This document shows, piece after piece, positions 15,864 to 16,315 of a stretch of 64,000 bases of DNA. Numbering within the stretch: the stretch's first letter is position 1; the number at the start of each line of letters is the position of its first letter. The stretch lies in the NCBI RefSeq assembly GCF_003019035.1, contig NZ_CP027447.1, one strand, 5' to 3'. The notes below the pieces were generated by a model, which saw only the letters and a list, made by a program, of their open reading frames with translations, did not search any database and was not told where the DNA came from. The DNA is from Escherichia coli (lineage in GTDB: Bacteria; Pseudomonadota; Gammaproteobacteria; Enterobacterales; Enterobacteriaceae). The position numbers and the translations under genes are program-made.

Positions 15864-16315
15864 GAACGTCTGCCCCGCTTGTTGCGGGTATAGCTCTCTA
15901 CTACACGACTTCTTTCATCGCAGCCTGGTAGATTCGAACAATTCACACAGGAGGCAACAATGAGCTACAAAATAGAATTTCTGCGTTTATTATCGGTTCA
16001 AGTAAAATAATAAATATTGATATTTCGAATATGTGTGAATTTACGGAAATGGGTGGTGAAAGCAACCTGTCATCCATTTTACTGTTCGTGTAAGGTTTGT
16101 TAGAAGAAATAATTTAATGTAACAAGTGACCTGATTAATAAAATAAAACATTCATCTTGGTTATATATTGAAGTTATTTGATGATGAATTGAATTGTCAT
16201 GAATTGCTAAATAAAGCTTCTTAAATAATATATAATCATGACCACTCTTCGTTTATGACGTTTCTGTTACACCCATTTTACTTTTTAAACTGTCTCTGAT
16301 TGAGAGGGATTTCTC

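Follow-up and report, generated by a model that had tools for sequence, protein, structure and literature searches.

Why does this Escherichia coli chromosome carry only a short stretch of DNA between ydbL and the neighbouring autotransporter gene, where K-12 carries a large catabolic block, and what does that short stretch contain? In MG1655, ydbL and ydbA lie 19,185 bp apart, separated by feaR, feaB, tynA, paaZ, paaA-K, paaX, paaY, and ynbG, a distance close to the roughly 20 kb that a first-pass annotation of our sequence had given for K-12. We examined the corresponding junction in a 64-kb stretch of E. coli DNA (64,000 nucleotides, hereafter the window), compared it with complete E. coli genomes and with related species, and weighed the explanations that could account for it.

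Anatomy of the ydbL-autotransporter junction

ydbL is the terminal gene of the ydbH-ynbE-ydbL set, and its TAA stop codon lies at 15861-15863. The spacer that follows extends to the autotransporter ATG at 16316 and occupies 452 bp (15864-16315). The features of the junction are as follows.

15540-15863, + strand: ydbL (107 aa, DUF1318; Pfam PF07027, E=1.2e-30), named ydbL in TCM3e1 and SCU-301
15864-16010, + strand: left part of the spacer, 43% GC, haplotype-specific orphan sequence holding a hairpin, an AGGAGG, and a 16-codon frame
15960-16010, + strand: candidate mini-ORF MSYKIEFLRLLSVQVK of 16 codons, with ATG at 15960, stop at 16008-16010, and a perfect AGGAGG at 15949-15954, separated by a 5-nt gap
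16011-16315, + strand: AT-rich 5' region of the autotransporter allele, 29% GC, presumed promoter and possible H-NS target
16063-16069: position of an IS3-family insertion in the relatives CE10 and N32
16316-22278, + strand: BigA/YdbA-family autotransporter gene (Pfam BigA_N, E=1e-26; BigA_beta, E=1e-24)

The spacer as a whole has a GC content of 33.6%, with 42.9% at 15864-16010 and 29% at 16011-16310. The last of these intervals is the lowest-GC 300 bp in the window, which has a mean of 49.7%; only 0.14% of its 300-bp windows are that low. Both the exact coordinates and the low GC content of the AT-rich gap described in the first pass are borne out. Among five window-type strains, the left 150 bp of the spacer contain one substitution and the next 300 bp about 13. 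A second region of the window below 33% GC, with a minimum of 30%, lies at 6509-6942, just upstream of ydbK/nifJ (6920-10444, minus strand) on the ompN side.

The spacer carries no trace of the K-12 block

Homology between the window and K-12 extends from ldhA through ydbH, ynbE, and ydbL and ends at 15851-15861. It returns at 16303, 13 nt before the autotransporter ATG, at 63% identity, and is solid again from 21163, in the part of the gene that encodes the beta-barrel. Divergence from K-12 climbs toward the junction from both flanks. On the left, ydbL is 92-99% identical to its K-12 counterpart per 100 nt up to 15799 and 67% identical in its last 60 nt. On the right, the first few hundred base pairs of pdxI are 95-99% identical (later 100-nt windows fall to 88%), the barrel region of the autotransporter gene is 78-93% identical, and the passenger part is either unalignable with K-12 ydbA or merely 40-60% identical to it.

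Searches of the spacer with blastn at word size 7, blastx, and tblastx, against K-12 and more than 60 related loci, found no remnant of K-12 island genes or intergenic sequence. A positive control for this scar test is provided by ST131-type genomes, which do show feaR'-'paaY. As the spacer holds no K-12 trace at the DNA or protein level, we conclude that it is not a deletion scar. Nor did we find an alignment of the interval to K-12 interrupted only by an IS-mediated scar, and the earlier observation of a direct junction stands.

Several kinds of junction lack the fea-tynA-paa block

Across 5426 complete E. coli genomes, paaABC is present in 3147 (58%) and feaB-tynA in 3293 (61%). Four junction structures without the block were counted, in a table that excludes roughly 1100 island-less genomes with other, unclassified structures.

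Window-type spacer: 47 of 5426 genomes, always at the ydbL-ydbA locus and never annotated
ST131-like scar, feaR'-'paaY: 564 of 5426
O157-type direct junction, 412-bp spacer: 375 of 5426
2013C-4282-type direct junction, 646-bp spacer: 18 of 5426

The window-type spacer is full length in 41 genomes, and its carriers include IAI39, SMS-3-5, and CE10, strains of phylogroup F. The gene order of the window, with ydbH-ynbE-ydbL on the left, the ydbA-type autotransporter gene and pdxI-ydbD on the right, and no fea, tynA, or paa genes between them, is also found in TCM3e1, SCU-301, SMS-3-5, and IAI39. By this arrangement, the window belongs with those haplotypes of the known variable ydbL-ydbA locus that lack the island.

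The spacer has repeatedly been an IS target in relatives, by both IS3-family and IS1 elements. Besides the IS3-family insertions listed above, an IS1-bounded deletion starting at 16003 has removed everything from the spacer into ydbD in SCU-172 and two more genomes.

The other junctions are built differently. ST131-like genomes have a true scar, in which a truncated feaR runs into a truncated paaY and then into a ydbA 5' region like that of K-12. The spacer of the O157 type bears no relation to that of the window; that of the 2013C-4282 type is, over its final ~320 nt, 65% similar to window positions 16011-16315. An alignment of the 5' regions of six alleles groups the window with 2013C-4282 and K-12 with B2, with O157 in a class of its own; common to all six are only the Shine-Dalgarno sequence and ATGCAAA(A/G)GAAAA.

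Variation at this locus has been described before. The paa locus was reported as a heterogeneous part of the genome that lies between ydbH/ynbE/ydbL and ynbC/ynbD and takes in ydbA (Goldstone 2016, PMC4951805), and tynA was found in 0 of 28 O157:H7, 0 of 11 newborn-meningitis, and 7% of UPEC isolates, with a 33-kb gap noted in CFT073 (Elovaara 2015, PMC4640556). The fea-tynA-paa presence/absence polymorphism is therefore already published; about 40% of complete genomes are without the block, and the window is an island-less member of this polymorphism. Beyond the presence and absence described in those studies (PMC4951805, PMC4640556), we tell apart the scar-type ST131-like junction and three non-homologous direct junctions.

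The catabolic genes are absent from the closest complete chromosomes

The first-pass annotation had noted that the feaRB-tynA-paa block is missing at the junction of ydbL with the autotransporter gene, and its absence extends to the whole window. No fea, tynA, or paa gene was found in the 64 kb, where the only matches are paralogs 26-38% identical to FeaB and PaaZ, of the aldehyde dehydrogenase type.

For the related chromosomes we used a chimeric query composed of window positions 14000-16400 and reverse-complemented 301-nt K-12 fragments of feaR, feaB, tynA, paaZ, paaA, paaK, and paaX. The query matched a single place, the junction, in 43 of 43 chromosomes with a window-type junction, full or IS3-inserted, and at least two places in K-12-like genomes. 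None of the seven genes therefore lies on those 43 chromosomes at megablast sensitivity, which reaches down to about 85% identity; the search covered chromosomes. Plasmids were examined across the collection as a whole, where only three plasmid places match paaABC and three match feaB-tynA.

None of the complete genomes has the run of six G residues that interrupts the autotransporter gene of the window (see below). The window's own genome therefore lies outside the 5426, and the absence of paa elsewhere in the genome holds for its closest relatives only. The first-pass suggestion that phenylacetate and phenylethylamine probably cannot be catabolised is supported at the level of the lineage by the whole-genome check of paa and tynA in these 43 closest chromosomes, and we infer that the lineage is unable to use phenylacetate or 2-phenylethylamine via Paa/TynA/FeaB. 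Such a predicted lack of growth is a known strain-variable trait.

The block and the direct junctions are both old

Species-representative genomes were scanned with YdbL, which gave 58 loci for an outgroup survey. Genes arranged as ydbL-feaR-feaB-tynA(-paaZ-paaA), and oriented as in K-12, were found in one Klebsiella genome bin, two Silvania, three Leclercia, and three species of Citrobacter. As this order next to ydbL is found in other genera, the linkage is older than E. coli. The earlier picture of an "island" missing from one strain is too simple for a block that was linked to ydbL before E. coli arose and is absent from ~40% of its genomes.

In E. albertii, E. whittamii, and C. amalonaticus, ydbL is followed by pdxI without the block. 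No autotransporter was detected at the YdbL-scan loci at E<=1e-10, and a remnant in E. whittamii emerged by ORF listing. The E. whittamii locus (stretch L012, 10325-10863) has a 404-bp spacer of 30% GC and is 66% identical over 546 nt to the O157-type junction; ahead of pdxI it keeps 44 codons of an autotransporter N-terminus, which match the window protein at 50% identity over 36 aa. This remnant implies that an autotransporter gene formerly stood at the site and was later deleted. The sharing of the O157-type junction implies in turn that scar-free direct junctions are also old, and that they predate or cross species limits.

In E. coli there are two deep allele classes of YdbL, 71-74% identical in protein; the ydbL copies compared include those at window positions 15540-15863, in the retrieved stretches L007 (9041-9364) and L011 (2465-2788), and in the E. 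whittamii stretch L012 (10001-10324). Class 1 comprises the K-12, B2, window, and 2013C-4282 types, and class 2 comprises O157 and SCPM-O-B-8794. The O157-class protein is 87-89% identical to that of E. whittamii, nearer to it than to K-12, and either class occurs both with and without the fea-paa block. Such a split suggests introgression at the border of the variable locus, or a polymorphism that has long persisted there.

The AT-rich 5' region is a candidate for H-NS control

An SD-like GAGAGGGA lies at 16302-16309, before the autotransporter ATG. The best candidate -10 elements are TATAAT at 16231-16236 and TAATAT at 16226-16231, both weak (8-9 of 12 matches), and a consensus promoter scan of the spacer gave no hit on the + strand. 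The density of promoter-like hexamer pairs on that strand of the spacer is 3.5 times that of the window overall, without a signal beyond AT content: six sites with at least 8 of 12 matches were counted, vs 8.8 ± 3.6 in composition-matched shuffles. At 29% GC over 300 bp, beside a hypervariable autotransporter allele, the region has the AT content of a "promoter island", a class that is defined by the program PlatProm, whereas our sites were counted by hexamer-pair matching.

The K-12 paaY/ydbA intergenic region is one of 78 such promoter islands, is H-NS-bound in the Kahramanoglou and Oshima data sets, and is reported to be transcriptionally silent (Panyukov & Ozoline 2013, PMC3661553). It occupies the same position as the spacer, just 5' of a ydbA-type autotransporter gene, is of comparable length (330-385 bp in K-12) and very AT-rich, and has in common with it the Shine-Dalgarno sequence and first codons (AGGATTT..ATGCAAA). 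The two differ in that homology is undetectable beyond ~25 nt around the start codon, and in that the spacer is without two features of the K-12 region, the small gene ynbG and an evident hairpin-plus-T-run terminator behind paaY.

The H-NS high-affinity motif TCGATAAATT has only two matches in the spacer, each with two mismatches, which is uninformative. Silencing of the spacer by H-NS, as raised in the first pass, is plausible from its AT content and from the K-12 counterpart, which is non-homologous in sequence. As a place where H-NS might control a BigA/YdbA-type adhesin, the AT-rich 5' region is a sensible candidate.

The left part of the spacer holds a candidate mini-ORF

The hairpin after ydbL consists of a 5-bp stem, CCCGC/GCGGG, at 15874-15888 and is not followed by a U-run. 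A terminator scan returned no intrinsic terminator in the spacer. Given a fold z of -0.28 and no terminator-like site, the hairpin is weak and at chance level; the stem reported earlier is present, and a structure beyond chance is not. RNA structure in the left 157 nt is likewise not beyond chance on either strand (z +0.33 and -0.71), and no Rfam 15 family matched positions 15000-17000 on either strand at E<=1.

This left part shows no similarity to K-12, to the O157 or 2013C-4282 types, or to the outgroup loci, and the repeats found in the spacer are limited to short matches in two copies. A distant-mode search of plasmids and phages, made in case the orphan sequence came from a mobile element, gave no match.

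The tiny 16-codon frame behind AGGAGG is present exactly as the first-pass annotation had claimed. A perfect AGGAGG with a start codon and at least 10 codons arises in 1.0% of composition-matched spacer shuffles. The mini-ORF is invariant among five aligned window-type strains, which leaves no variation to reveal selection, and no SD-led counterpart was found in the other junction haplotypes (O157, 2013C-4282, K-12, and E. whittamii). By these comparisons the frame at 15960-16010 is real and, at that frequency in shuffles, unlikely to be there by chance; it stands as a candidate confined to the window-type haplotype.

A perfect 10-nt inverted repeat, AATTCACACA / TGTGTGAATT at 15940-15949 / 16032-16041, brackets the AGGAGG and the mini-ORF. 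By a rough estimate, a repeat of this length and composition is near chance expectation.

The autotransporter gene is a divergent BigA/YdbA relative

In the window, a G run (G6, 19030-19035) is 1 nt short, which splits the autotransporter gene into two ORFs (16316-19162 and 19102-22278). One G is missing relative to the copy in SCU-301; SCU-301, TCM3e1, CE10, and all 14 complete genomes with the segment have G7, not G6. The frameshift marks a strain-specific pseudogene, or reflects slippage, or is a homopolymer sequencing error. As the gene is frameshifted, the presumed promoter would drive a broken gene, unless the missing G is such an error.

The intact SCU-301 copy encodes 1987 aa and carries BigA_N and BigA_beta, both above Pfam cut-offs. 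The NCBIfam model auto_BigA scores 1988 bits over residues 512-1987, below its 3400-bit cut-off. By its domains, the protein is a relative within the BigA/YdbA family and a divergent allele, not an exact BigA equivalent: the window gene has BigA_N and BigA_beta in common with the adhesins BigA (Salmonella) and YdbA, and departs from them in the auto_BigA score, in a passenger far from that of K-12 ydbA, and in the frameshift of the window copy. The first-pass proposal of a horizontally acquired adhesin is met by mixed evidence. The gene was found at this site in no other genus, which agrees with the proposal, but E. whittamii keeps a remnant and the GC content of the gene body is 48-59%.

The 5' part of the gene contains tandem 21-nt repeats at ~16640-16800 (around 16735), which encode a Gly/Asn/Thr/Pro/Asp-rich, GGNTPDD-like repeat. 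TCM3e1 has one 21-nt unit more than the window and SCU-301, so that copy number differs between near-identical strains.

Discussion

We observed directly how the junction is built, which genomes carry it, that it contains no scar, and that fea, tynA, and paa are missing from related chromosomes. As an explanation of the whole, we think it probable that the spacer is an ordinary non-coding intergenic region, the version of a known hypervariable locus that is carried by the IAI39/SMS-3-5/CE10 lineage. We propose that it consists of two unrelated pieces. The left ~150 bp after ydbL would be sequence found in this haplotype only, with no good terminator, and the right ~300 bp would be an AT-rich 5' region that travels with this ydbA/bigA-type allele and most likely holds its promoter. 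The variable segment would begin at the final codons of ydbL and end where the autotransporter gene enters its conserved beta-barrel part, with alleles that differ in the presence of fea-tynA-paa, in spacer sequence, and in passenger sequence, and that were most likely exchanged whole, by homologous recombination within the conserved sequence on either side. The island-less state would then be old and would have come with the allele, not from a recent deletion in a K-12-like ancestor. Given the block beside ydbL in several genera, an old loss of the block with subsequent sequence turnover and a lineage that never had the block would be indistinguishable here.

Two other histories of the locus bear on this proposal. 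In one, an IS element or illegitimate recombination recently removed the 19-kb block from a K-12-like ancestor, leaving the 452 bp as the residue of the two K-12 intergenic regions. Real scars do exist at the locus, both the ST131-like feaR'-'paaY and the IS1-bounded deletion of SCU-172, and IS elements have struck the spacer in CE10 and N32. The spacer, however, is unlike the ydbL-feaR and paaY-ydbA intergenic regions of K-12 and unlike any island gene at the DNA or protein level; it contains no IS ends and no notable repeats, and the neighbouring passenger domain is itself another allele. A recent scar is thus already largely refuted, and we regard it as extremely improbable. In the other history, the window represents an ancestral "empty site" and the block was inserted into the lineage leading to K-12-like strains. 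The block is indeed missing in E. albertii and E. whittamii and at two loci of Salmonella and many of Citrobacter, E. whittamii shares the direct junction of the O157 type, and the YdbL C-terminus GKWLQK resembles those of outgroups, with the K-12 GKWVRKF looking derived. We nevertheless consider an ancestral empty site unlikely, as the same block order and orientation in Citrobacter, Leclercia, Silvania, and the Klebsiella bin point to an old linkage with repeated loss, and B2 strains clearly lost the block.

The remaining alternatives concern function. The spacer may hold a functional small gene or regulatory RNA, with the 16-codon frame serving as a small protein or as a leader peptide that couples ydbL read-through to autotransporter expression. 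A perfect Shine-Dalgarno sequence at ideal spacing, with a chance expectation of about 1%, the low substitution count of the left 150 bp (1 in five strains, vs about 13 in the next 300 bp), and the annotated 21-aa protein gene ynbG in the K-12 counterpart region all fit such a role, and the mini-ORF could sit on the ydbL transcript, as no terminator follows ydbL. We rate this as very unlikely: the observation is post hoc, the O157, 2013C-4282, K-12, and E. whittamii haplotypes offer no counterpart, the frame is invariant in the strains aligned and so leaves no variation in which purifying selection could show, neither an Rfam match nor significant RNA structure was found, and the IS1-bounded deletion from 16003 strips everything downstream in three strains. 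A broader possibility, distinctly unlikely in our judgement, is that several alleles of the ydbL-ydbA interval have long been maintained, in a polymorphism that extends beyond single species, and that the 16-codon frame is a real leader or small protein of the window-type allele. The basis for it is that at least three non-homologous AT-rich 5' regions, unalignable passengers, and two ydbL classes (the O157 class 89% identical to E. whittamii) coexist at the locus. If it were true, balancing or diversifying selection would act on a surface adhesin, and a metabolic pathway would be dragged along.

Under our preferred explanation, in which the spacer is ordinary intergenic DNA and the locus is one already known to vary, the junction has little significance in itself. 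What we add is bookkeeping on that locus: the window type is one among several junctions, free of a scar and specific to its lineage. A state of "no paa" is reached in several ways, through the true scar of ST131-like strains or through old direct junctions, at least three in number, whose spacers are unrelated. If "paa absent" is scored as one state in pangenome or GWAS work, unrelated haplotypes are therefore merged. We also note that the ydbA-position homologue of E. coli ZH063, WP_099996233.1 (>2600 aa even in the retrieved stretch L006, 10445-18352), is named "EntS/YbdA MFS transporter" in RefSeq, which looks like an annotation mix-up of ydbA with ybdA.
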